Below, one piece after another: positions 3,944-47,448 of a DNA stretch of 64,000 nucleotides. Within the stretch, counting starts at the first letter, position 1, and each line of letters opens with the position of its first letter. Source of the DNA: an uncultured Gammaproteobacteria bacterium (GTDB taxonomy: Bacteria > Patescibacteriota > Microgenomatia > UBA8517); the NCBI GenBank assembly GCA_964583105.1, contig CAZOUV010000003.1, forward strand, positions 14,946-78,945, given 5' to 3'. The translations under genes and the position numbers were made by a program. Below the pieces are notes generated by a model. The model saw nothing but the letters and a program-made list of their open reading frames with translations. It made no database searches and was not told the origin of the DNA.

Positions 3944-5172
3944 ATGTTTTCGTTTTCTACAACTTCCACCAGATCTGAAAAAATATACCCTAGACCATCC
4001 TCAAGTTTTATTTGATACCAGCTGTTGGTAAGAGAAACATATTCAAATATCTCTCCGTCTTTGGCACTAGCAACTATTTTGGAGTCGAAAGAGGGGTTCT
4101 CACGAACATTAACGGATGAAAGCTCTTTATCATTAATTTTGACCGTTACTAATTTTGTATCTTTTTCTGTTTCAGTTCTTATCCCCGCAACAGATTCTTT
4201 AGGTATTGCTAGAGAAGTGTCTATATTTTGAGTTTCGATTTCGGGTGTTACCGGGGTTTGTCTATTTTTAAATGCAGTTTGAGCTATTCTTAGATACTTT
4301 GATACTATATCTGTATTGTTTGATCCTACAGTACTGCGTACATTGTTAAAACCGAACGAAAAAAGCAAAATATAGATAGATGTAGCCAGAGAAAACTTAA
4401 AAAAAGAATATCCAAACGACCCGTTTGACTTATTTTTTCTGTTTGAATAAGGATTATCCTTTTTATTTGGAGGCTGTCTCCTCACAAGATGAGCGTATTC
4501 TTTATCTAAAAATATACACTCGCAGAGTTTGAGATCTTTTTCATCCAAATCGTAATTTTCAACAAATTTTTGATAATTTTCGATACTTTTTATTTTGGAG
4601 TGTTGACTGTTGTTAAAAATTGTCAAAACCAAATTGCTATTTAGCCACGGAAGCTTGTTTTTTCCTGTATATACATCATAAGAAGAATATTTACTACTTT
4701 CTAAAGCCTCACGGTGTAAATAGTTGCTTAAATAAAGAAGAGAAGATTCATTTTCGATAAGGGCGGACTTATAGGGCCCCGCAAATAGGGGGCCTTGATG
4801 GTTGTATTTTTTATTGTAATACATAGAGTATCTTGTAGAAAGAGATCTCATAAATTTTTCCAAAAAACCACCAGCCAATTGACACAAAACAAGATGAAAA
4901 TGATTGGGGAAAAGTGTATATACTATAAGATCAATTTTATTATGGTAATTCTGGGGTTGATATGATATACCCCGGTATTTTTTACCACGGATCTCAAACT
5001 CTTTTTGAAAGAAATTCGGATCAGTAATGGGACTAAGATATTCCTTTAAAAAACCCAGGAAAATTTCGTAGTCTTGCTTGTCGTTAAAGATATTATTTCC
5101 GGAAATACTCTTGTTTGATATATGAAAGAATCCATTTTCTTTATCAATACGTTTGATATACTTGGCAGGCAT
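3940..5172 (-). CDS. HUH (IS200/RAYT-like Y1 transposase fold) domain fused to a TM segment and a C-terminal SH3b-like domain
   Basis: 410 aa. HUH 'NHFHLVL' and Tyr helix 'YLSNYLHRE' lie in the first ~170 aa. There is a hydrophobic 'FFKFSLATSIYILLFSFGF' segment. The C-terminal 'VNVRENPSFDSKIVASAKDGEIFEYV..WYQIKLEDGLGYIF' is SH3b-like. Confidence 0.6.
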   Translation of the reverse strand: MPAKYIKRIDKENGFFHISNKSISGNNIFNDKQDYEIFLGFLKEYLSPITDPNFFQKEFEIRGKKYRGISYQPQNYHNKIDLIVYTLFPNHFHLVLCQLAGGFLEKFMRSLSTRYSMYYNKKYNHQGPLFAGPYKSALIENESSLLYLSNYLHREALESSKYSSYDVYTGKNKLPWLNSNLVLTIFNNSQHSKIKSIENYQKFVENYDLDEKDLKLCECIFLDKEYAHLVRRQPPNKKDNPYSNRKNKSNGSFGYSFFKFSLATSIYILLFSFGFNNVRSTVGSNNTDIVSKYLRIAQTAFKNRQTPVTPEIETQNIDTSLAIPKESVAGIRTETEKDTKLVTVKINDKELSSVNVRENPSFDSKIVASAKDGEIFEYVSLTNSWYQIKLEDGLGYIFSDLVEVVENENI

Positions 5173-5637: not shown

Positions 5638-6147
5638 TTGATAAAAAAGAATTCAAAAATAATACTGATAATCATAGGTGTTATAGTTCTTTCATTGATT
5701 GCGTTTTTCCTACTTAAATCAAAAAACTCGGGCTCAGATAATACATCTCAAGGGACTGTTTTTGGTTCGATCAAGGATGCAATTTCCAAATCATTAAGTA
5801 TTAAATGCGAATATAAAGTAGGGGAGAGCACAACCATTGCCTATGTTAGGGGCAAGGAAATGAGAATTGATGGAAATTGGCAGGGACAAAGTAACTCCTC
5901 CGTAATTATCAAGGAAGACAAAATCTGGTCTTGGGATAATCTAAAGAAAGAGGGGGCCATTATTCCTATTAACAAAGACGAACAGGATCAAACCATATCG
6001 GAAGATTTCATAGATAGTCTTGAAGAACAGAGAGATTTCTGTAAAGTTTCCGTTTATTCCGATTCCGTATTCACACCCCCGGAAGACGTTAGCTTTCAGG
6101 ATTTGGGAGACTTAAATAATCTCATGGTTCCAGGGATTTCCGAATAA
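5638..6147 (+). CDS. hypothetical membrane-anchored/secreted protein
   Basis: The track ORF begins at GTG 5629, which abuts the AAGGAGG at 5623-5629. TTG 5638 has 8-nt spacing from that SD, so I prefer it as the start. There is an N-terminal signal-anchor 'IILIIIGVIVLSLIAFFLL'. Confidence 0.55.
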   Translation: MIKKNSKIILIIIGVIVLSLIAFFLLKSKNSGSDNTSQGTVFGSIKDAISKSLSIKCEYKVGESTTIAYVRGKEMRIDGNWQGQSNSSVIIKEDKIWSWDNLKKEGAIIPINKDEQDQTISEDFIDSLEEQRDFCKVSVYSDSVFTPPEDVSFQDLGDLNNLMVPGISE

Positions 6148-7641: not shown

Positions 7642-8604
7642 ATGAAAACCTGGCAAAAGATAAAAAGAAATCCTGAATTAATATCCAAATATTTAATCAG
7701 GGAAGAAGTAATTGATAAAATTCGAAGTTTTTTTAAAGCCCACGGTTTTCGTGAGGTTTTTACTCCGATTTTAGTACCAGTTCCCTCAATAGAGCCAAAT
7801 TTGGAAGTTTTTGAAACGCAGTTAAAAACTTTAAGAGGATTAAAAAGAAAAGGATTTTTAATTATGAGTCCTGAGTATTCTATAAAGAAACTTTTAGCTG
7901 CAGGGATAGGGAACTGTTTTGAAATAACCAAATGTTTCAGAAATGAAGAAGAAATTTCCCCACTTCATAATCCGGAATTTACAATGCTTGAGTGGTACAG
8001 AGTAGGGGTGGACTACAAAAAAATAATGCAGGATTTTGAAAATTTGTTTTTACAAATAATCGGCAAAGACAAACTTACATATCAGGATGTAACTTATGAC
8101 TTGAGTTTGCCTTGGCCAAGAATAAGTTTTAAGGAAGCTTTCAAAAAATATGCAAATAAAGATATTGAAAAGATAAAAGACGAGGATTTCTATAAAATAT
8201 TTTTTAATGAGGTGGAACCGAATATTAAAAAACTTAAAAAACCTGTAATTTTATACGATTATCCGGTTTCTCAGGCATCTCTTGCAAGAAAATGTAAAGA
8301 GAATCCTAAATTTGCCGAAAGGTTTGAAATATTTTTGGCCGGTATTGAACTCGGAAACTGTTTTTCGGAACTAACGGATTACAAAGAACAAAGAAAAAGG
8401 TTCGAAAAAGATCTTCTGAAAAGAAGAAAAAAGGGAAAAACTAATTACCCAATTGATAATGATTTGATCGAAGCGTTGAGAGAGGGCATACCTGAAGTTT
8501 CCGGTATTGCAGTAGGAGTTGACAGGCTTATCATGCTTGCAACAGATGTACCTAGTATTTCCGAGACATTATTTTTCTCCGACAAGGAGTTGTTTGATTT
8601 GTAG
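7642..8604 (+). CDS. epmA: EF-P lysine aminoacylase EpmA (GenX/PoxA, truncated class II LysRS paralogue)
   Basis: 320 aa with 'CFRNEE..HNPEFTMLEWY', 'AERFEIFLAGIELGNCFSEL' and 'SGIAVGVDRLIMLAT'. It lies directly upstream of efp. Confidence 0.85.
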   Translation: MKTWQKIKRNPELISKYLIREEVIDKIRSFFKAHGFREVFTPILVPVPSIEPNLEVFETQLKTLRGLKRKGFLIMSPEYSIKKLLAAGIGNCFEITKCFRNEEEISPLHNPEFTMLEWYRVGVDYKKIMQDFENLFLQIIGKDKLTYQDVTYDLSLPWPRISFKEAFKKYANKDIEKIKDEDFYKIFFNEVEPNIKKLKKPVILYDYPVSQASLARKCKENPKFAERFEIFLAGIELGNCFSELTDYKEQRKRFEKDLLKRRKKGKTNYPIDNDLIEALREGIPEVSGIAVGVDRLIMLATDVPSISETLFFSDKELFDL

Positions 8605-39678: not shown

Positions 39679-39749
39679 GGATCCGTCGTTTAACGGCAAG
39701 ACGGGTCTCTTATAAAGACCAAACGATAGTTCGACTCTATCCGGATCCA
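39679..39749 (+). tRNA. tRNA-Ile (anticodon UAU)
   Basis: Acceptor GGATCCG/CGGATCC, U8, D stem GTTT/AGAC, anticodon stem GGTCT/AGACC with loop CTTATAA, T arm GATAG-TTCGACT-CTATC, discriminator A, no encoded CCA. TGcTATAAT lies at 39655-63 upstream. Confidence 0.85.
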
Positions 39750-39770
39750 CTCAAAAAAGTTTTATTTTGA

Positions 39771-41316: not shown

Positions 41317-41600
41317 CATTTATTAAAAAGGAAGAAGATTTTGTCTGCAAAGTTTGCGGAACAAAAGTAAAAGGAACGGGATATACCAACCATTGTCCGA
41401 ATTGTCTTTGGAGTTTACATGTAGATGAAGTTATCCCGGGGGATAGACTATCTGAGTGTAAAGGACTTATGGAACCAATTAATGCGGAAATGAAAAACGG
41501 AGAATACATAATTATCCACAGATGCCAGAAATGTAAAAAAACAATTAAAAACAAGGCTTCGGAAAACGACAATATTGAAGAGATAATTAAACTTCTATAA
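41313..41600 (+). CDS. RNHCP domain zinc-ribbon protein
   Basis: 'CKVCGTKV..YTNHCPNCLWSLHVD' and 'CQKCKK'. Confidence 0.7.
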   Translation: MTFIKKEEDFVCKVCGTKVKGTGYTNHCPNCLWSLHVDEVIPGDRLSECKGLMEPINAEMKNGEYIIIHRCQKCKKTIKNKASENDNIEEIIKLL

Positions 41601-41608
41601 AACTTCTG

Positions 41609-41678
41609 TTGCGGAGCCAGGAGTTGAACCTGGCCTGCGAGATTATGAGCCTCGCGTGCAGCCGTACACTACCCCGCA
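41609..41678 (-). tRNA. tRNA with CAU anticodon (Met; initiator-like weak U1:A72 pair)
   Basis: Minus strand: UGCGGGG-UA-GUGU-ACGGCU-GCAC-G-CGAGG-CUCAUAA-UCUCG-CAGG-CCAGG-UUCAACU-CCUGG-CUCCGCA-A. No encoded CCA. Confidence 0.8.
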
Positions 41679-41749
41679 TATAACTAACATGGCTATTATA
41701 ACATACGGGTTTGTGAGTAGCTTTCCTTTAAGGTAAAATACTTAATTAA

Positions 41750-41821
41750 GCCAACGTAGCTCAGTGGTAGAGCGGAGCCCTCATAAAGCTTAGGCCGAAG
41801 GTTCAATCCCTTCCGTTGGCA
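41750..41821 (+). tRNA. tRNA with CAU anticodon (elongator Met or Ile2)
   Basis: GCCAACG-TA-GCTC-AGTGGTA-GAGC-G-GAGCC-CTCATAA-AGCTT-AGGCC-GAAGG-TTCAATC-CCTTC-CGTTGGC-A. There is a C31:A39 mismatch. Confidence 0.8.
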
Positions 41822-41868
41822 CTCTTCTAGTTTTTAGTTATTGACTTATTGGCATACATTGTATTACA

Positions 41869-42153
41869 ATGAAATCTGGTAAGAGTATGAAACTGGTTTG
41901 GGACGAGTGGAACAAGGAACATATTAAAAAACATAAAGTTTCCGTTTCTGAAGTCAAACAGGCCTGTAAGAACGAGATTGTTACTAAACAATCATATCTA
42001 AACAGGCAAATGATTTTAGGAGTAACGAAAAACAAGAGACTTTTGACAGTATTTCTCTCTTTTGAGAAACAGAAAGAAGGATATGTTGTGTCAGCAAGAG
42101 ATATGAGTTTAAAAGAAAGGAAAGTTTATTATGAAAAGACCAAAACCAATTAA
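41869..42153 (+). CDS. brnT: BrnT-like (DUF497) toxin, second copy
   Basis: 'LVWDEWNKEHIKKHKVS' and 'VVSARDMSLKERKVY'. Confidence 0.7.
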   Translation: MKSGKSMKLVWDEWNKEHIKKHKVSVSEVKQACKNEIVTKQSYLNRQMILGVTKNKRLLTVFLSFEKQKEGYVVSARDMSLKERKVYYEKTKTN

Positions 42154-42412
42154 ACCATTTAAATCTTTGAAAGAAGAAGCCAATTTTTGGGATACTCACG
42201 ATGTAAGTAAAGTATTTAAAAATCCAAAAATTTCTCTTTCCGAATTATTATCCCTTGAACCTAAAAAGGAAGTAATAATGACCTTAAGGGTTCAGAAAGT
42301 GGTTAAAGAAAAAATAGACAAAGTAGCAAAAATAAAAGGGATTAACCCCGCAACTCTTTCCAGAATGTGGCTTGTGGAAAGATTGACAAGGGAAGAAGGT
42401 TTGGTATACTAA
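42131..42412 (+). CDS. brnA: BrnA-like antitoxin, second copy
   Basis: 'KPFKSLKEEANFWDTHD' with a C-terminal RHH-like 'MTLRVQKVVKEKIDKVA'. It overlaps brnT. Confidence 0.7.
   Translation: MKRPKPIKPFKSLKEEANFWDTHDVSKVFKNPKISLSELLSLEPKKEVIMTLRVQKVVKEKIDKVAKIKGINPATLSRMWLVERLTREEGLVY
42383..42410 (+). promoter_or_regulatory. sigma70-like promoter for the T-box leader
   Basis: TTGACA(42383-88)-16 nt-TATACT(42405-10), embedded in the 3' end of brnA. Confidence 0.55.
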
Positions 42413-42417
42413 CGCTA

Positions 42418-42683
42418 GTTTTATAAATGCTTTGAGAAGATCGGTTGGGATCTTTGAATAGCTGGCAAAGCTACTCGAAAGAGATGTCGAGCCCAGAGGC
42501 GAAACTGTAAAAGTCAGCAACGAGTGTCGGAAACGGAGCTCGTCAAGAATAAGGTTTTCTTATCTTAACGATCTCGCTTTGGCGAGATTTTTGATTTAAG
42601 ACAACAAAAATAGGGTGGTACCCCCGAGAGGGCCCTTGTAAATTAACGATTTGTTTCGTTGGTTTGCAAGGGCTTTTTTGTTT
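42418..42683 (+). promoter_or_regulatory. T-box riboswitch leader (predicted Trp-specific, transcription-termination type)
   Basis: K-turn-like 'UUUGAGAAGAUC'; hairpin 42437-54 with loop GGUUGG; Stem III 42571-88; T-box 'AAAUAGGGUGGUACCCCCGAGAGGGCCCU' folding as AGGG[UGGUACC]CCC-GAGA-GGG-CCCU; and a competing terminator. Confidence 0.85.
42632..42683 (+). terminator. intrinsic terminator of the T-box leader
   Basis: An 18-bp stem (42632-49 pairs with 42656-73, including 4 G:U) with a 6-nt loop, followed by TTTTTTGTTT. Confidence 0.85.
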
Positions 42684-42755
42684 GGGAATGTAGCTCAAGG
42701 GCAGAGTATCCGTCTCCAAAACGGAAGATTGAGGGTTCAAGTCCCTCCATTCCCA
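42684..42755 (+). tRNA. tRNA-Trp (anticodon CCA)
   Basis: GGGAATG-TA-GCTC-AAGGGCA-GAGT-A-TCCGT-CTCCAAA-ACGGA-AGATT-GAGGG-TTCAAGT-CCCTC-CATTCCC-A. No encoded CCA. Confidence 0.95.
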
Positions 42756-42831
42756 CATATGGAAAGAATTAAATTTATAACACCGGCTATGTTAATTAGA
42801 AAGGAAACCTCGCAAGAGGGGTATCTCTGGC

Positions 42832-44238
42832 ATGACTATGTTTGGAATAAATATATTACTTAAACATATAAATAATAACTCTTTTATTGATAGGGAAGTT
42901 TCAGGTGCCCTAAAAAGAAGAGGGGAGAAAGAAATCTTTAATAGATTTTTGGTATCAGAACTTTCTTCGGGAGATAAAGTCATCGATTTTATGCTCAAAG
43001 AAGTTAAACAAAATACTAAAAACCTTTTAAAAGAAGGAATAATTATACCTGATCAGGTTTTACTTGATTTTACTATCTCAATTTTGAAGGCGGGTGGGAG
43101 TGAGAAACTGAATACCTACGACACAATTGTCAGGAAAATTATTGAACAAGAAAGCCCAAGATTTAAAAAACTTCACAACGATATAGATAAAGGCAGGTTT
43201 GACGGCAGATTACCCTTTGGGTATCCGGATGCAAGCAAAAGGGCGGCAGGGATGTTAACTGCCAAGATAAAAGATACTGCTCAAGATGTTAGAGAAGATT
43301 ATTTGGAGCAAAAATTTGTTGGAGATAAGATTAGAGAATTTTCCAAAGAAATGTTTTACGGAATTAATAAATTGGACCTATCGGGTAATGAACTGGTTAG
43401 ATATTTGAACATTCTCTATGGACTATCTCTTGTGCAAGTTGCACCTACGGAAAACCCCATACTTTTAAAAAGTAGAATATGTGAGGCCATAAGACAAAAA
43501 GAGCCAATTGATCTTGTGTATATAAAAAGCTTACGTTATTCCTATCCAGGGGGAAAAGGCATGAAATTAGTTAACCACCTTAATGAAGAAGAGACATTAA
43601 ATTTAGACGGGACAAAAAGGAAGTATTTCAGCGAGCATTTAATATTAGAAAGATTAGGTAAATTTGTTCAAATTTTTAATAATGCAGATGTAAAAGTTCA
43701 CTTAAATATAATAATTGCAGATAATGATCTTGATATTCTTTTCCCTATCGGTAGCGGTTTTGTGCCCGACAGCGATATTTATACAGCAAAAGAAGATATT
43801 AATTATTATCTGGAAAATTTTTGTCGTACCTGTGAGAATATGCACGCTGATGTTTATCTTTTAACAGATTTTATTAAACAAAAACATCTTGAGGGTAGTT
43901 ATACAAAGATGGTTAAATTTATTTATTCGGATGTTAAAAATCAAAGAAACATCATATCTGAAAGAGAAATCGAAGAAAGAGTAAATTTCAGATATGAATT
44001 TTTTGGACAGATCTATGGAAAAAAGTATTCAAGGGAATGTGCAAGAGAGGCAATGTATAACCAAATTGCAAATGTTATGGCCCTGTCAGAAGTTTTTAAT
44101 TCTTTTAAAAAACCTCCGGTTGTGGTGATTGATTACAGGGGACTGGAGAATAAAATGATTGGTGGACTAGAACCAAATTCCAGAAGCGTGTTCTTGACCA
44201 AACTTAAAGAGCCAACGATAATAGAGAAAGTGAAATGA
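42832..44238 (+). CDS. hypothetical cytoplasmic protein, function unknown
   Basis: 468-aa ORF with no TM segments and no motif I recognise. Its stop overlaps the trpS ATG (ATGA). Confidence 0.7.
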   Translation: MTMFGINILLKHINNNSFIDREVSGALKRRGEKEIFNRFLVSELSSGDKVIDFMLKEVKQNTKNLLKEGIIIPDQVLLDFTISILKAGGSEKLNTYDTIVRKIIEQESPRFKKLHNDIDKGRFDGRLPFGYPDASKRAAGMLTAKIKDTAQDVREDYLEQKFVGDKIREFSKEMFYGINKLDLSGNELVRYLNILYGLSLVQVAPTENPILLKSRICEAIRQKEPIDLVYIKSLRYSYPGGKGMKLVNHLNEEETLNLDGTKRKYFSEHLILERLGKFVQIFNNADVKVHLNIIIADNDLDILFPIGSGFVPDSDIYTAKEDINYYLENFCRTCENMHADVYLLTDFIKQKHLEGSYTKMVKFIYSDVKNQRNIISEREIEERVNFRYEFFGQIYGKKYSRECAREAMYNQIANVMALSEVFNSFKKPPVVVIDYRGLENKMIGGLEPNSRSVFLTKLKEPTIIEKVK

Positions 44239-45218
44239 AAAAAAGAGTATTTTCAGGTACAAGAGCAACCGGAAGGTTGCATTTGGGTAATTATCTTGGA
44301 GCCGTAAAAGGTTACCTTGAACTTCAGGATAATTCCAATTATGAAACCATTTATATGGTTATGGATTTGCATGCCATAACGACACCGTTTGACAAAGAAA
44401 AACTATCCAATAATACAAAAAACGTAATTATGGATTATCTGGCCTGTGGTCTTGATCCTGAAAAATCTATAATTACTGTTCAATCTTTGGTTCCGGAACA
44501 CACTTATTTGGCCCAAATTCTTTCCTCCGAAATAACGGTTGCCAGAATGCAGCACTTGCCTACATTTAAGGACAAGGTAAAACAATACCCCAAAAATGTT
44601 TCCATGGCCCTTCTTAATTATTCGGTTCTCATGGCTGCCGATATTCTTCTTTATAAGGCATCTTTGGTTCCCGTGGGGATTGATCAGGAACCGCATTTGG
44701 AAGTTGCCCGAGAAATTGCACGAAAAATGAACGAAAAATACGGTACGGATTTTCCTGAACCAACTAGGTTTTCAACAAAAGGAGAATATGTACCCTCATT
44801 GGTTGGAGAAGGCAAGATGAGTAAGGGCGTTGAGGGAAGCTATATAAACATTACCGATGACTTAGAAACCATCAAAAGTAGATTGGCACAGGCTCCAACC
44901 GATAGCGGGAAGGGAGATAAAATTCCCAAAGAAGGGGGAGTTGCAAACCTACTTACCTTTGTTGAGCTTTTTGAAGGAGAAGATAAAAGAAAGAAATATG
45001 AGAAAGATTATATTGGAAATGGTATTAGATACGGAGAATTAAAGGAAGAACTTGCGAAAGCCATATATAAAGAACTTAAGCCAATACAGGAAAAAAGAAA
45101 AGAATTTGAAAACAATCCTTTTTTAGTAGATGAAATAATTAAAGAAGGAGCCCAGAAAGCAAGTAGAATTGCTAAAGAAACCATTAAAGAAGTAAAAAAG
45201 AAAATTGGTCTTATTTAA
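44235..45218 (+). CDS. trpS: tryptophan--tRNA ligase
   Basis: 'GRLHLGNYLG' (HIGH) and 'KMSKG' (KMSKS); 327 aa. Confidence 0.95.
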   Translation: MKKRVFSGTRATGRLHLGNYLGAVKGYLELQDNSNYETIYMVMDLHAITTPFDKEKLSNNTKNVIMDYLACGLDPEKSIITVQSLVPEHTYLAQILSSEITVARMQHLPTFKDKVKQYPKNVSMALLNYSVLMAADILLYKASLVPVGIDQEPHLEVAREIARKMNEKYGTDFPEPTRFSTKGEYVPSLVGEGKMSKGVEGSYINITDDLETIKSRLAQAPTDSGKGDKIPKEGGVANLLTFVELFEGEDKRKKYEKDYIGNGIRYGELKEELAKAIYKELKPIQEKRKEFENNPFLVDEIIKEGAQKASRIAKETIKEVKKKIGLI

Positions 45219-45219
45219 T

Positions 45220-45573
45220 ATGGATACTATTTCATTTGACGATTTTCAAAAGGTTGATATAAGGGTTGGAACCGTTATTAAGGCGGAAGTTCCTTCTTGG
45301 AGCCATTGGGTGATGAAAATTACTGCCGATTTGGGTCCCGAAATTGGCGAAAAAGTTTGTTTTTCAGGAATAATGAAGTTTTTTAAGCCCGTTAGTTTTG
45401 TAGGTAAACAGTTTCCTTTTGTTGTTAATTTAGAGCCTAAAAAGATTGGACCGGAGAAGGATTTTTCTGAGGTTATGATGATTATGGCCTGCCCCGGAGG
45501 AGATGACAACGACATTGCTCCTGTTTTATTTAAACTTCAGAAAAAGGTTCCAAATGGAACAAAAGTCTTTTAG
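45220..45573 (+). CDS. tRNA-binding domain protein (CsaA/Trbp111-like OB fold)
   Basis: 'FDDFQKVDIRVGTVIKAE' and 'VVNLEPKKIGP'. ATG 45220 lies 1 nt after the trpS stop. Confidence 0.8.
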   Translation: MDTISFDDFQKVDIRVGTVIKAEVPSWSHWVMKITADLGPEIGEKVCFSGIMKFFKPVSFVGKQFPFVVNLEPKKIGPEKDFSEVMMIMACPGGDDNDIAPVLFKLQKKVPNGTKVF

Positions 45574-47448
45574 ATGCTACAATTCCTCCGTATGAAGAAA
45601 AAGAAAGAACTCTCAAAAAGAAAGGGGGTCCAGGTTAAGATTAGAATTAATTTAAGAAGTATTCTTTTAGGCATATTTTTGCTTTTATTTATTCTTCCTG
45701 CAATTTTTTCCTTTCTTGATTTAAAAGGTGGTAGTTCCAAGGTGGAACTTTCTCAGGCCCTTTTGGATTTGAAAGAAGGAAAAATAGAAAAAGTAACCAT
45801 TCAGGAAAACAAACTTCTTTTGGGTTACAAAGATGGAAATTTAAAATATACAACCAAGGAAGAAAGCGATAGTTTTGTGTCCCTTTTAGAAAAGGTGGAT
45901 ATGGATCCTACTAAAGTAAACTACACAATTGCAGACTCAACCTTGACAAAAGCTTTTGGCGGGGTTTTGGGGACACTTCTGCCTATTCTTTTAATGATAG
46001 GGGCCTTTTATTTTATTTTTAAGCTTCAGAGTCGAGGTGCCCAGGACATTTTCTCATTTGGAAGAAGCAAAGCAAAACTTTTTGCCAAAGGAAAACAGGA
46101 TATAACTTTTAAAGACGTTGCGGGAGTAGATGATGCCAAAAAGGAACTTGAGGAAGTTGTAGATTTTCTTAAAAACCCAGCAAAGTACAGAAAGATAGGA
46201 GCAAGAACACCCAAAGGGGTGCTTCTTTTTGGTCCATCCGGAGTTGGTAAAACACTTCTTGCAAAGGCGGTTGCTGGAGAGGCCAATGTGCCGTTTTTTA
46301 GTATGGCAGGCTCTGAATTTATGGAAATGCTCGTAGGTGTGGGCGCTAGCAGAGTTCGTGATTTATTCCAAAATGCCAAAGCTTCTGCTCCATCCATTAT
46401 TTTTATAGACGAAATAGATGCAATAGGAAGGCAGCGTGGAAGAGGGCTTATGGGGGGGCACGACGAAAGAGAACAAACCTTAAATCAAATACTTGTTGAG
46501 ATGGACGGTTTTACCCCCAATGACAATGTTTTGGTAATGGCAGCAACCAACAGGGGAGATTTATTGGATCCAGCACTTCTTCGACCAGGAAGATTTGATA
46601 GAAGAGTTACTTTGGATATGCCGGACAAAGAAGGAAGACTGGCAATTCTTACGATTCACGCCAAAGGAAAGAAATTTACAAAAGGAATTAATTGGCTAAA
46701 GATTGCAGACAGAACCGTAGGTTTTTCAGGAGCAGATCTTGAAAACATGCTTAATGAAGCTGCAATTACGGCAGCAAGAAACGGCAAGGATGCAATTGAT
46801 ATGCTTGATCTGGAGGAATCTGCCACAAAGGTAAAATTAGGCCCCGCTAAGAAAAAGATTCAAACCCAAGAGGATAGAAACTTGACAGCATATCATGAAG
46901 CGGGACATGCTCTTGTTTCCCATAAACTTACTAAAACAGATCCCGTGCAAAGAATTTCCATTGTTGCCCGGGGAATGAGCTTGGGACATACGGAAATTTC
47001 TCCAGAAACGGGTGATAGAACTCACGAAACTAAAACAAGACTTACTCAGGCCATAACAGCAATGCTTGGAGGCAGGGCTGCAGAACAGATAGTATTCAAT
47101 GAACTTACCGCTGGAGCTTCTAATGACATAAAAGTTGCTACAAAATATGCAAAGGCAATGGTGGTTGATTTTGGAATGAGCCCCTTGGGACCGGTTAATT
47201 TGGGAGGAAACAGTGAAATGGGTGACTTTGGCAATTTGGAGTGGTACGAGGGCTCACAGATCTCCCCAGCCTTTGCTGAGAAGGTAGACAACGAAATATC
47301 AAAGATATTAGACAAATCCTATAAAGAAGCAGAAACGATTATTAAAAAGAACAGAAAGACTTTGGATGCAATTGTTAAAAAACTAATGGAGAAAGAAACA
47401 TTAGATAAAGATGAATTTGAGAAGATAGTTGGGAAGAAAATAGTATAA
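45574..47448 (+). CDS. ftsH: ATP-dependent zinc metalloprotease FtsH
   Basis: '[18 protein letters not shown]', 'IIFIDEIDA' and 'HEAGHAL'. Confidence 0.95.

Follow-up and report, generated by a model that had tools for sequence, protein, structure and literature searches.

A probable Trp-specific T-box ahead of the gene for its likely ligand tRNA in Microgenomates-type Patescibacteria

Among RNAs that sense another RNA the T-box is the textbook example, and to our knowledge every T-box described controls protein genes, be they for aminoacyl-tRNA synthetases (aaRS), for biosynthesis or for transport. The locus considered here raises the question of whether a T-box can instead have, as its first regulated product, the very tRNA that it senses. 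It lies in a stretch of 64,000 nt of contig CAZOUV010000003.1 (the window, on whose numbering all unprefixed coordinates are given), in which a leader of 269 nt with the appearance of a tryptophan T-box (42415-42683) ends directly before a tRNA-Trp gene. Behind the tRNA come a short open reading frame (the upstream ORF), a gene for an uncharacterised protein of 468 amino acids (ORF468) and trpS, the gene for tryptophanyl-tRNA synthetase (TrpRS). The answer argued for below, to which a probability of about 0.78 is given, is that the leader is a functional, Trp-specific, transcription-attenuating T-box of a distinct structural subclass, most likely controlling the gene for its own ligand.

The leader folds with −94.6 kcal/mol (z = −6.0 relative to shuffled controls), and its 3′ part can adopt two mutually exclusive structures. 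The antiterminator, AGGG[UGGUACC]CCC-GAGA-GGG-CCCU, consists of helix A1 of 4 bp (42612-15/42633-36), a 7-nt bulge (42616-22) and helix A2 of 3 bp (42623-25/42630-32) closed by the loop GAGA. The intrinsic terminator competes for the 3′ strands of both A2 and A1, and has −33.2 kcal/mol vs −7.4 for the antiterminator. The preliminary description of this DNA had proposed both the canonical antiterminator fold and the exclusive terminator with its U6, and folding and a terminator scan agree with it. The tRNA gene begins 4 nt after the U6; it has A73, its CCA end is not encoded, and two tRNA searches concur with the original call (Table 1). Upstream, the promoter had been placed inside the 3′ end of an antitoxin gene, brnA, and this holds: it matches the sigma-70 consensus at 11 of 12 positions, has TG ahead of its −10 element, falls within the 3′-terminal part of an antitoxin ORF of the CopG/BrnA type (42131-42412) and is the top site of its kind within 41500-46500. 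The scan scored sigma-70 consensus sites only, and promoters of Patescibacteria are poorly characterised. Transcription is predicted to start near 42417.

Relatives of the leader are what decide its status. A scan based on TrpRS, with one genome per species, gave 80 loci with TrpRS identities of 58-81%, all from Microgenomates/Woesebacteria-type Patescibacteria. With an nhmmer profile made from the obvious leader homologues, the leader was recovered in 19 other loci (E 1e-31 to 1e-64). It stands 5′ of trpS in L006, L016, L024, L028, L031, L032, L037, L044, L048 and L069 (L numbers denote loci), and is present in all loci fetched via homologues of ORF468 or via the tRNA; in most relatives the T-box is directly before trpS. 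For L010, L058, L073 and L074 the match is limited to the 3′ domain. Promoters of the TTGACA type likewise lie 10-25 nt 5′ of the leader in L081, L082 and L089, and more are visible in the sequences of other relatives. The putative T-box subclass is found here only in Microgenomates/Woesebacteria-type Patescibacteria.

The antiterminator alignment made with MAFFT has a one-column register shift between leaders of the CCC/GGG and GCC/GGC types, and for this reason each leader was folded separately and pairs were not counted on the alignment. The fold of A1, 7-nt bulge and A2 was recovered in 23 of the 24 leaders folded, the segment of the remaining one, L031, having ended too early to be informative. 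A1 has 4-5 bp, the bulge is UGGNACC or else UGGCACA or UGGCAAA, and A2 covaries (CCC/GGG, GCC/GGC, GUC/GAC, ACGAG/CUCGU, ACGG/CCGU). A competing terminator hairpin is present in all 24 (−13.5 to −48 kcal/mol); a U-tract follows it in all but L069, whose tract is weak (CUUUAUU). The alternation of antiterminator and terminator that was to be looked for in related loci has been kept in the folded leaders.

The 5′ domain was examined in an alignment of 20 leaders (alignment A2) on which a structure was specified by hand, made up of Stem I, Stem IIA, a pseudoknot of two pairs, and the inner and outer helices of an extra hairpin. Stem I is a hairpin of 5-7 bp with a terminal loop of 6-10 nt in all 20 leaders. 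The one in the window has the kink-turn (K-turn) 5′ strand GC-UUU-GA (42429-35), a helix (42436-42/42449-55), the loop GGUUGG (42443-48) and a 3′ GA (42456-57). The UGG that ends this loop is complementary to the anticodon CCA of the tRNA behind the leader. UGG followed by G or A is invariant in the 20 leaders, and UGG also occurs in L010 and in three mini T-boxes described below; the five Stem I pairs below the loop have all changed on both sides. The preliminary description had taken this UGG for the specifier, and invariance and covariation bear it out. Two alternatives which it had offered fall away: UGG at 42463-65 is AGG or AGA in relatives, and the segment at 42526-36 is a conserved hairpin without UGG. 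Trp specificity is thus supported, and with it an ultrashort Stem I that would display the specifier in its terminal loop. Independent support for this specificity comes from L044 (3428-5871), where the Trp T-box is followed by a small ORF, a TrpB-like gene (407 aa, with the GHFGQFGGRYVPE motif), a TrpA-like gene (262 aa) and then trpS.

Beyond Stem I the leaders are of two types. Those of type 1 have a covarying Stem II hairpin, AGGU-CUAAAUA-ACCU. Type 2 (the window, L016, L048, L082, L086, L087 and L089, with L093 added by eye) has in its place two small hairpins, the second of which changes from CUC/GAG to CCC/GGG in L087. Stem IIA (ACRG-AGRCGAAA-CYGU) is 97.5% paired. Its loop forms a pseudoknot pair with a downstream ..YGY, alignment columns 87-127, for which GC (n=14), AU (n=5) and CG (n=1) are found with 0 mismatches; an F-box-like CUGUAA follows Stem IIA/B. 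The extra hairpin is 96.9% paired, with 4 of its 8 pairs changed on both sides and with loop insertions in several relatives. Stem III, predicted earlier from the window sequence, is part of the minimum free energy (MFE) fold; it is identical in L006 and L081, has other hairpins in its place elsewhere, and is absent from L024 and L044.

Taken over the whole 5′ domain, 96.1% of cells form a standard pair vs 79.0% in column shuffles, and sliding the 3′ partners by 1-3 columns leaves 22-43% of cells paired. Both sides have changed in 12 of 19 pairs (shuffle mean 9.1; 10/500 shuffles reach 12), and the covariation score, 0.541 vs 0.204 in shuffles, is attained by 0/500 of them; alignment of homologous leaders, the check that the preliminary description had called for, has come out in its favour. 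The compensatory changes in every helix point to selection on the structure. They bear directly on the notion that the leader resembles a T-box by chance, or is a relic of one, decaying or without function, upstream of an inserted cassette of tRNA and ORF468. That notion draws on an Rfam score below threshold, on the absence of the cassette from the closest TrpRS relatives (L001-L008) and on a leader copy in L084 and L085 that has lost its T-box sequence. Against this, every helix is compensated, the alternation of antiterminator and terminator is intact in the leaders folded, UGG is invariant and the arrangement is kept across distant ORF468 homologues, so that it is scarcely credible. A signature of foreign insertion was also sought in the window: the GC content of 42684-44238 resembles that of its flanks. 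What has been observed, then, is the set of sequence elements, the way in which they are conserved and covary, and the gene order that the loci share, and by function the leader would be a T-box, having the antiterminator bulge, the competing terminator, the matching specifier and the IIA/B pseudoknot which are core to the class.

The order T-box then tRNA-Trp is not peculiar to the window. It is found in 13 distinct loci (the window, L069, L081, L082, L083, L086-L091, L093 and L094), so that the proposal of a T-box heading the gene of its own ligand tRNA recurs 12 times over. The gene order is T-box, tRNA-Trp, (upstream ORF, ORF468 homologue), trpS, with an ORF468 homologue between tRNA-Trp and trpS in 12 of the 13 and L069 as the exception. 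These loci were reached independently, via TrpRS, via ORF468 homologues of 29-54% identity and via the tRNA sequence, though most of the supporting contigs are short metagenomic assemblies. Every ORF468 context fetched has the order T-box/tRNA-Trp/ORF468 homologue/trpS (L081, on a 982-kb contig, L082, L083, L086, L087, L088, L093 and L094). Four contigs, of which three are distinct, came out of an exact-pattern scan of the Joint Genome Institute (JGI) metagenomes for tRNA-Trp of this kind, and in each a T-box precedes the tRNA; an ORF468 homologue comes after the tRNA in L089, L090 and L092, and the short L091 ends soon past the upstream ORF, too early to confirm the homologue there. Among the 80 TrpRS loci tRNA-Trp is near trpS in one, L069, and there it is directly behind a leader of the family. 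In the TrpRS tree, loci with a linked tRNA are interspersed with others that have a plain T-box or no T-box, so that the arrangement is either ancient, with repeated losses, or mobile among members of the group.

L084 (5355-5545, identical in L085) has a variant of the theme: a promoter and a T-box-like 5′ domain with UGG loop, IIA/B and extra hairpin, which lacks GGUGGNACC and ends in a plain hairpin and U5. Next come a tRNA-Trp with G73 and encoded CCA, a second promoter with a complete Trp T-box, and ORF440-trpS, so that the tRNA is flanked in tandem. ORF440 is the most distant ORF468 homologue (34% identity).

Would the tRNA depend on the leader for its transcription? It could in principle be expressed essentially independently of the riboswitch, from an unrecognised promoter in leader or terminator or by high constitutive read-through, and its position could be a by-product of the clustering of tRNA genes upstream of trpS. 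The T-box-less loci L001 and L003, where trpS follows tRNA-Met at 17-50 nt, lend this some colour, as do the limits of the promoter scan mentioned above. Yet in none of 11 loci is there a promoter-like site between leader start and tRNA by the criteria that find the upstream promoters; such a promoter in related genomes had been named in the preliminary description as a reason to give up the proposal. The gap from U-tract to tRNA is 0-12 nt in the tRNA-linked loci that have a U-tract, and this tight spacing is kept although ORF468 identity is as low as 29-54%. The terminators of the tRNA-linked loci, moreover, are very strong (−25 to −48 kcal/mol). Independent expression is considered very unlikely. 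A TTGCAA at 42664 was looked at as a promoter for the tRNA and set aside, since inspection showed no −10 box that it could use. On the simplest reading, tRNA-Trp would be made only from read-through transcripts.

The fit between bulge and discriminator is informative to a lesser degree. A73 faces UGGU, a Watson-Crick match, in the window, L082, L083, L086, L088 and L093, and G73 faces UGGC, also a Watson-Crick match, in L090 and L091; L089 and L094 have a G/U wobble. Pairing of one kind or the other is thereby available in 10 of the 13 tRNA-linked loci. Trp T-boxes often carry a U opposite G73, a wobble, according to TBDB (PMC7778990), and the A73/UGGU match of the window is therefore weak evidence when taken alone. 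The complementarity itself, as pointed out in the preliminary description, stands.

Transcripts that pass the tRNA would enter the upstream ORF. In the window this ORF begins with an ATG 3 nt past the discriminator, includes two Trp codons and runs 32 nt into the start of ORF468. A frame of 26-35 codons is open in 10/10 tRNA-linked loci analysed, and is seen by eye in L093 and L094; its pattern is MER..P..L[VI]RKEP..G.VWHD[YF][VI]WN, and 9 of these 10 have the ATG at +3. The stop is 13-32 nt inside the ORF468 gene, whose own ATG (GTG in L089) falls between the two Trp codons. A conserved Leu position is encoded by TTA, TTG, CTG or CTA. No Shine-Dalgarno sequence precedes the upstream ORF in the tRNA-linked loci. 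In L084, where a T-box instead of the tRNA comes before it, there is a AAAGGAGG Shine-Dalgarno 6 nt upstream. A covarying hairpin (CCUC-GCAA-GAGG in the window) lies between the upstream ORF and the ORF468 region. From these features we infer that the upstream ORF is translated and that its translation is coupled to that of ORF468; that it acts as a sensor by way of its Trp codons is speculation.

Several findings weigh against the proposed T-box and its control of the tRNA. The first is the response to the Rfam model. An RF00230 match of no significance had been named beforehand as a reason to give up the proposal, and a permissive search of 501 nt of the window returned 21.0 bits (E 0.013), the gathering threshold being 93; at that threshold there is no match in the window nor in any of 12 related loci tested. 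The permissive alignment pairs the 5′ GA motif AUAAAUGCUUUGAG and the T-box sequence AAAUAGGGUGGUACC...GGGCCCUU, the T-box part with high posterior probability and the Stem I interior deleted. Nor is the 9-mer GGTGGNACC by itself better than chance, as the window has 2 matches vs 0.7 expected; the second, at 8211, is inside a coding ORF (7642-8604) and is rejected as a chance match. With RF00230 below threshold and the 9-mer insignificant, the decision rests on the related sequences, and the significance of the T-box comes from the composite element and its 19 homologous leaders rather than from the 9-mer. Since RF00230 is blind to the relatives too, its low score is a limitation of the model and not a refutation; and as it misses the whole family, T-boxes of Patescibacteria are probably under-annotated.

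The other adverse points concern Stem I, the tRNA end and the downstream genes. Stem I lacks the distal tRNA-elbow platform, the specifier internal loop, the AG bulge and the distal loop, and according to a 2020 review (PMC7583486) that platform is something which T-boxes of the transcriptional kind 'generally require', in the setting of fast co-transcriptional capture of tRNA. The K-turn is a further departure. The relatives of type 1 have the textbook form, GC-NUU-GA...GA-GC, but the 3′ strand in the subtype of the window is GA-AUAGC, for which no consistent C-stem partner was found, the 3′ C-stem not being adjacent. The GA motif earlier proposed for the base of Stem I is thus canonical in its 5′ strand and tandem G.A pairs, and is not so in its 3′ strand. 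Three of the 13 tRNA-linked loci (L081, L087 and L069) put A73 opposite a UGGC bulge, a C/A mismatch; either the mismatch would be tolerated, or the effector there would be a different tRNA-Trp, one with G73, encoded at another place in the genome. A promoter-like TTGACC-17-GATAAT (10/12; 44194-44222) stands within the 3′ end of ORF468, ending 13 nt short of the trpS ATG, and could give trpS a transcript independent of the T-box; sites of this kind occur at chance frequency in the region (14 found vs 12.9 expected). Lastly, the coding signal of the upstream ORF is modest, with a synonymous fraction of 23.5% in frame vs 18.7% and 10.2% in the other frames.

The mismatches also bear on what the embedded tRNA is for, as does the nature of ORF468. 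ORF468 has no match in Pfam, NCBIfam, PHROGs, PADLOC or a PDB profile search, and distant members of its family have no Pfam match either. Its homologues number 15 in a word-indexed set of 5.8 billion proteins and 98 cluster representatives in a full profile search of 1.84 billion, and none is present in the 80 TrpRS-based loci. The AlphaFold model is confident (pLDDT, the predicted local distance difference test, 88; pTM, the predicted template modelling score, 0.82) and has a Rossmann-type catalytic domain resembling class-Ic aaRS (TyrRS/TrpRS), cyclodipeptide synthases (CDPS) and PvcA-like folds. With such a fold, ORF468 is probably an aaRS-like paralogue that binds Trp or Trp-tRNA.

From this an alternative can be built in which the T-box is real and regulates trpS, while the embedded tRNA-Trp is a specialised second copy serving as a substrate for ORF468 and the main effector is a tRNA-Trp encoded elsewhere. 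ORF468 homologues were met with only beside this tRNA, in 13/13 distinct contexts examined besides the window, and the predicted fold is that of enzymes using aminoacyl-tRNA (cyclodipeptide synthases) or aromatic amino acids (PvcA/PIsnA). The C/A mismatch in three loci, the switching of the discriminator between A and G within the group and an extra W/Y-type aaRS paralogue at the same place in L069 point the same way. Pulling in the other direction, the tRNA-Trp of the tRNA-linked loci is a normal, high-scoring one (65-72 bits), the bulge is compatible in the ten loci given above, each of the four metagenome matches to tRNA-Trp of this kind is linked to a T-box and no unlinked copies were met with among them. 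Genomes of this group are small and usually have one tRNA-Trp gene, which also tells against a second copy. Even if it were right, the tRNA would still be under T-box control. This alternative is judged unlikely, though of those weighed it is the one to be taken most seriously. The L11/NusG/EF-Tu region, the usual neighbourhood of tRNA-Trp, was looked for in the window with motif patterns and not found.

Some loci vary in the enzymes near the tRNA. In L069 (3301-5483) a 339-aa ORF and a class I W/Y-type aaRS paralogue (388 aa, PF00579 7.5e-33) lie between tRNA-Trp and a tRNA_edit-TrpRS gene, occupying the place of the ORF468 homologue; the 339-aa ORF has no family match and no BLASTP similarity to ORF468. 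In L069 (5518-6966) and L086 (2094-3593), and probably in L016 (5524-6978), TrpRS carries an N-terminal fusion to an aminoacyl-tRNA editing domain (PF04073, YbaK-like). TrpRS of L082 (2324-4042) is fused to a B3_4 domain (PF03483). We know of no editing domain described for TrpRS.

Returning to a functional T-box that most likely controls the gene of its own ligand, the mechanism would run as follows; tRNA binding, control of read-through into the tRNA, processing and the logic of feedback are all inferred from sequence. Transcription would begin at the promoter, near 42417, and the nascent leader would display UGG in the Stem I loop, probably aided by the Stem II/IIA/B region. Uncharged tRNA-Trp would pair its anticodon CCA with UGG and its 3′ ACCA end with the UGGU bulge, thereby stabilising the antiterminator, and RNA polymerase would read through 42674-42683. 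Charged tRNA would be unable to lock the antiterminator, and the terminator would form. The first read-through product would be pre-tRNA-Trp, to be excised by RNase P and a 3′ endonuclease, from a transcript that would also carry the upstream ORF, ORF468, TrpRS and the tRNA-binding protein. Excision would leave a near-leaderless mRNA with its 5′ end 3 nt ahead of the AUG of the upstream ORF, and ORF468 would be translationally coupled to trpS through ATGA. The uncharged fraction of tRNA-Trp would then set the synthesis of both tRNA-Trp and TrpRS – a positive loop, in which more tRNA means more of it uncharged, held in check by TrpRS in a negative loop. Such a circuit would require basal read-through for its start-up.

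A more ambitious version can be put forward, and is regarded as doubtful. In it the status of tRNA-Trp would be read twice in a self-referential circuit, as uncharged tRNA at the T-box and as charged tRNA at the upstream ORF, which would be the first cistron of the near-leaderless mRNA and encode a 'tester' peptide with Trp codons that gates translation of TrpRS and of ORF468, an aaRS-like enzyme using Trp-tRNA or Trp; the abundance of tRNA-Trp would be autoregulated by its charging. The family would in addition be the first platform-less transcription-terminating class of T-boxes, and no natural T-box would be smaller than the leaders of about 112 nt in L002, L004 and L007.

Those mini T-boxes stand directly before trpS (L002 5862-5975; L004 519-630; L007 5864-5975). 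They have the K-turn, a stem of 5 bp, a terminal loop containing UGG, a linker of ~25 nt, a UGGC antiterminator and a terminator, and are devoid of Stem II, the IIA/B pseudoknot, the extra hairpin and Stem III. Between L002 and L004 both K-turn and stem show covariation. The three leaders may be either the smallest T-boxes in nature or remnants without function.

The genes of the locus and the elements of the leader are collected in Table 1; each sequence element listed in the preliminary description was recovered at the position that it had given. The end of ORF468 overlaps the start of trpS in ATGA, and the ATG of the tRNA-binding protein gene follows the trpS stop with a 1-nt gap; these junctions and the place of ftsH behind them had been given correctly at the outset. 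No convincing terminator was found on the + strand between 42680 and 45574, and ftsH is possibly in the same transcript as the genes before it. trpS is often followed by the gene for the tRNA-binding protein and ftsH, a synteny kept in L081 and L082.

Table 1. Positions of the promoter, leader elements and genes of the locus in the window
Feature	Coordinates	Strand	Basis or remark
Sigma-70-type promoter TTGACA (42383-88)-16 nt-(TG)TATACT (42405-10)	42383..42410	+	Consensus scan
Ultrashort Stem I	42429..42457	+	MFE fold; alignment A2
Specifier UGG (putative, Trp), then purine G42449	42446..42448	+	Alignment A2, invariant T24 G25 G26
Two small type-2 hairpins, UAGC-N7-GCUA (42459-73) and CUC-GAAA-GAG (42474-83)	42459..42483	+	Alignment A2
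Stem IIA hairpin CAG 42494-96/CUG 42505-07, loop AGGCGAAA; Stem IIB partner GC 42517-18	42493..42518	+	Alignment A2
Conserved extra hairpin ACGAG-UGUCGGAAACGGAG-CUCGU	42520..42543	+	Alignment A2, helix 4
Stem III hairpin AUCUCGC-UUUG-GCGAGAU	42571..42588	+	MFE fold
T-box sequence and antiterminator	42608..42636	+	Fold; Rfam RF00230 alignment
Intrinsic terminator, ~20 bp, and U6 (42674-79)	42629..42679	+	Terminator scan, folding; hairpin 42629-42676
tRNA-Trp, anticodon CCA	42684..42755	+	ARAGORN; Rfam 71.6 bits
Upstream ORF, 34 codons, MERIKFITPAMLIRKETSQEGYLWHDYVWNKYIT	42759..42863	+	Conserved open frame
ORF468, uncharacterised protein, 468 aa	42832..44238	+	Predicted class-Ic aaRS/CDPS/PvcA-like Rossmann domain
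trpS (tryptophanyl-tRNA synthetase)	44235..45218	+	Pfam PF00579 4e-58; TIGR00233 298 bits
Trbp111/CsaA-like tRNA-binding protein	45220..45573	+	PF01588; NF007495 1.6e-22, under its cut-off
ftsH	45574..47448	+	Abuts the tRNA-binding protein gene

On the 5′ side, close relatives share an order in which tRNA-Ile(UAU) is followed by two tRNA-Met genes, in divergent or tandem orientation, and these by trpS. The window has a tRNA called as Ile, anticodon UAU (39679-39750), which is syntenic with the tRNA-Met pair across close relatives. Between its tRNA-Met genes and the T-box promoter a BrnT-like toxin and CopG (BrnA-like) antitoxin pair, the BrnT-like ORF preceding the antitoxin ORF, is inserted (41869-42412) and has no counterpart in those relatives. 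In L003 (5881-5995) a hairpin and U-tract lie between tRNA-Met and trpS; the corresponding segment of L001 is 5909-6001. L007 has tandem copies of the 3′ part of tRNA-Met with its trailer (5690-5840, units of ~90 nt) between an intact tRNA-Met and the mini T-box, and in L016 an Rfam group I intron match (4183-4372; 73 bits, threshold 50) lies beside tRNA-Met ~0.8 kb upstream of the T-box. Adjacency of a tRNA gene to trpS seems typical of the lineage.

Were a T-box to gate both its effector tRNA and the synthetase that charges it, this would be a new circuit topology, with tRNA abundance itself controlled by a riboswitch and with positive feedback on the ligand and negative feedback via charging. 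In reduced genomes with few protein regulators it may be a main route to homeostasis of tRNA and aaRS. An ultrashort Stem I with its specifier in the terminal loop, in combination with an intrinsic terminator, challenges the requirement for a platform in co-transcriptional T-boxes (PMC7583486). Leaders so small would also offer natural scaffolds to structural and synthetic biology, and the ORF468 family and the editing-type fusions of TrpRS point to unexplored biology of tRNA-Trp in the group. Full-text literature searches, in which subscription papers were covered in part, returned nothing on T-boxes in Patescibacteria or the candidate phyla radiation (CPR), or on T-boxes upstream of tRNA genes.

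Judged by its sequence the leader most likely has two unusual traits, being a transcriptional T-box without a platform and having the gene of its ligand as the first regulated product. With the transcriptional T-boxes of Firmicutes (RF00230; B. subtilis tyrS and trpS) it shares a promoter-proximal leader and a codon-like specifier matching the regulated aaRS, at the base of Stem I a GA motif that is a full K-turn in type 1 and agrees in 5′ strand and tandem G.A pairs in the window, and likewise the Stem IIA/B pseudoknot, Stem III and an antiterminator with a 7-nt UGGN bulge opposed to an intrinsic terminator and U-tract. It is unlike them in its Stem I of 5-7 bp with a terminal-loop specifier and no elbow platform, in the extra hairpin after IIA/B, and in that the first gene downstream is that of the ligand tRNA and not a protein gene.

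Its nearest structural relatives are the actinobacterial ileS T-boxes with ultrashort Stem I, in which Stem I is also truncated and without elbow platform while the Stem II/IIA/B region is retained. The specifier of these is said to be in the terminal loop too (Sherwood, Grundy and Henkin, 2015, reportedly). In ultrashort-Stem-I T-boxes the Stem II/IIA/B region is essential for tRNA binding (PMC7583486). The ileS T-boxes are translational and sequester a Shine-Dalgarno sequence, whereas every leader of the present family that was folded has an intrinsic terminator, and in the window the terminator and U-tract are followed by a tRNA gene and not by a Shine-Dalgarno sequence and start codon. Phylum, amino acid (Trp, not Ile) and downstream gene (a tRNA) differ as well.

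Co-transcription of a tRNA that is cut out upstream of a translation-related gene is familiar from mixed tRNA-mRNA operons such as thrU-tyrU-glyT-thrT-tufB of E. coli, but no riboswitch is known at the entry of those operons, and the tRNA is not known to regulate its own transcription. Short leader ORFs with conserved Trp codons near their end, before or overlapping the regulated gene, are known from the trpL attenuator and from tnaC. The upstream ORF of the window is like these in being short, in the conserved Trp codons near its end and in overlapping the gene that it may regulate. It is unlike them in lying downstream of a T-box and a tRNA, in having neither a Shine-Dalgarno sequence nor associated alternative terminator hairpins, and in that it would start 3 nt from a 5′ end generated by processing.

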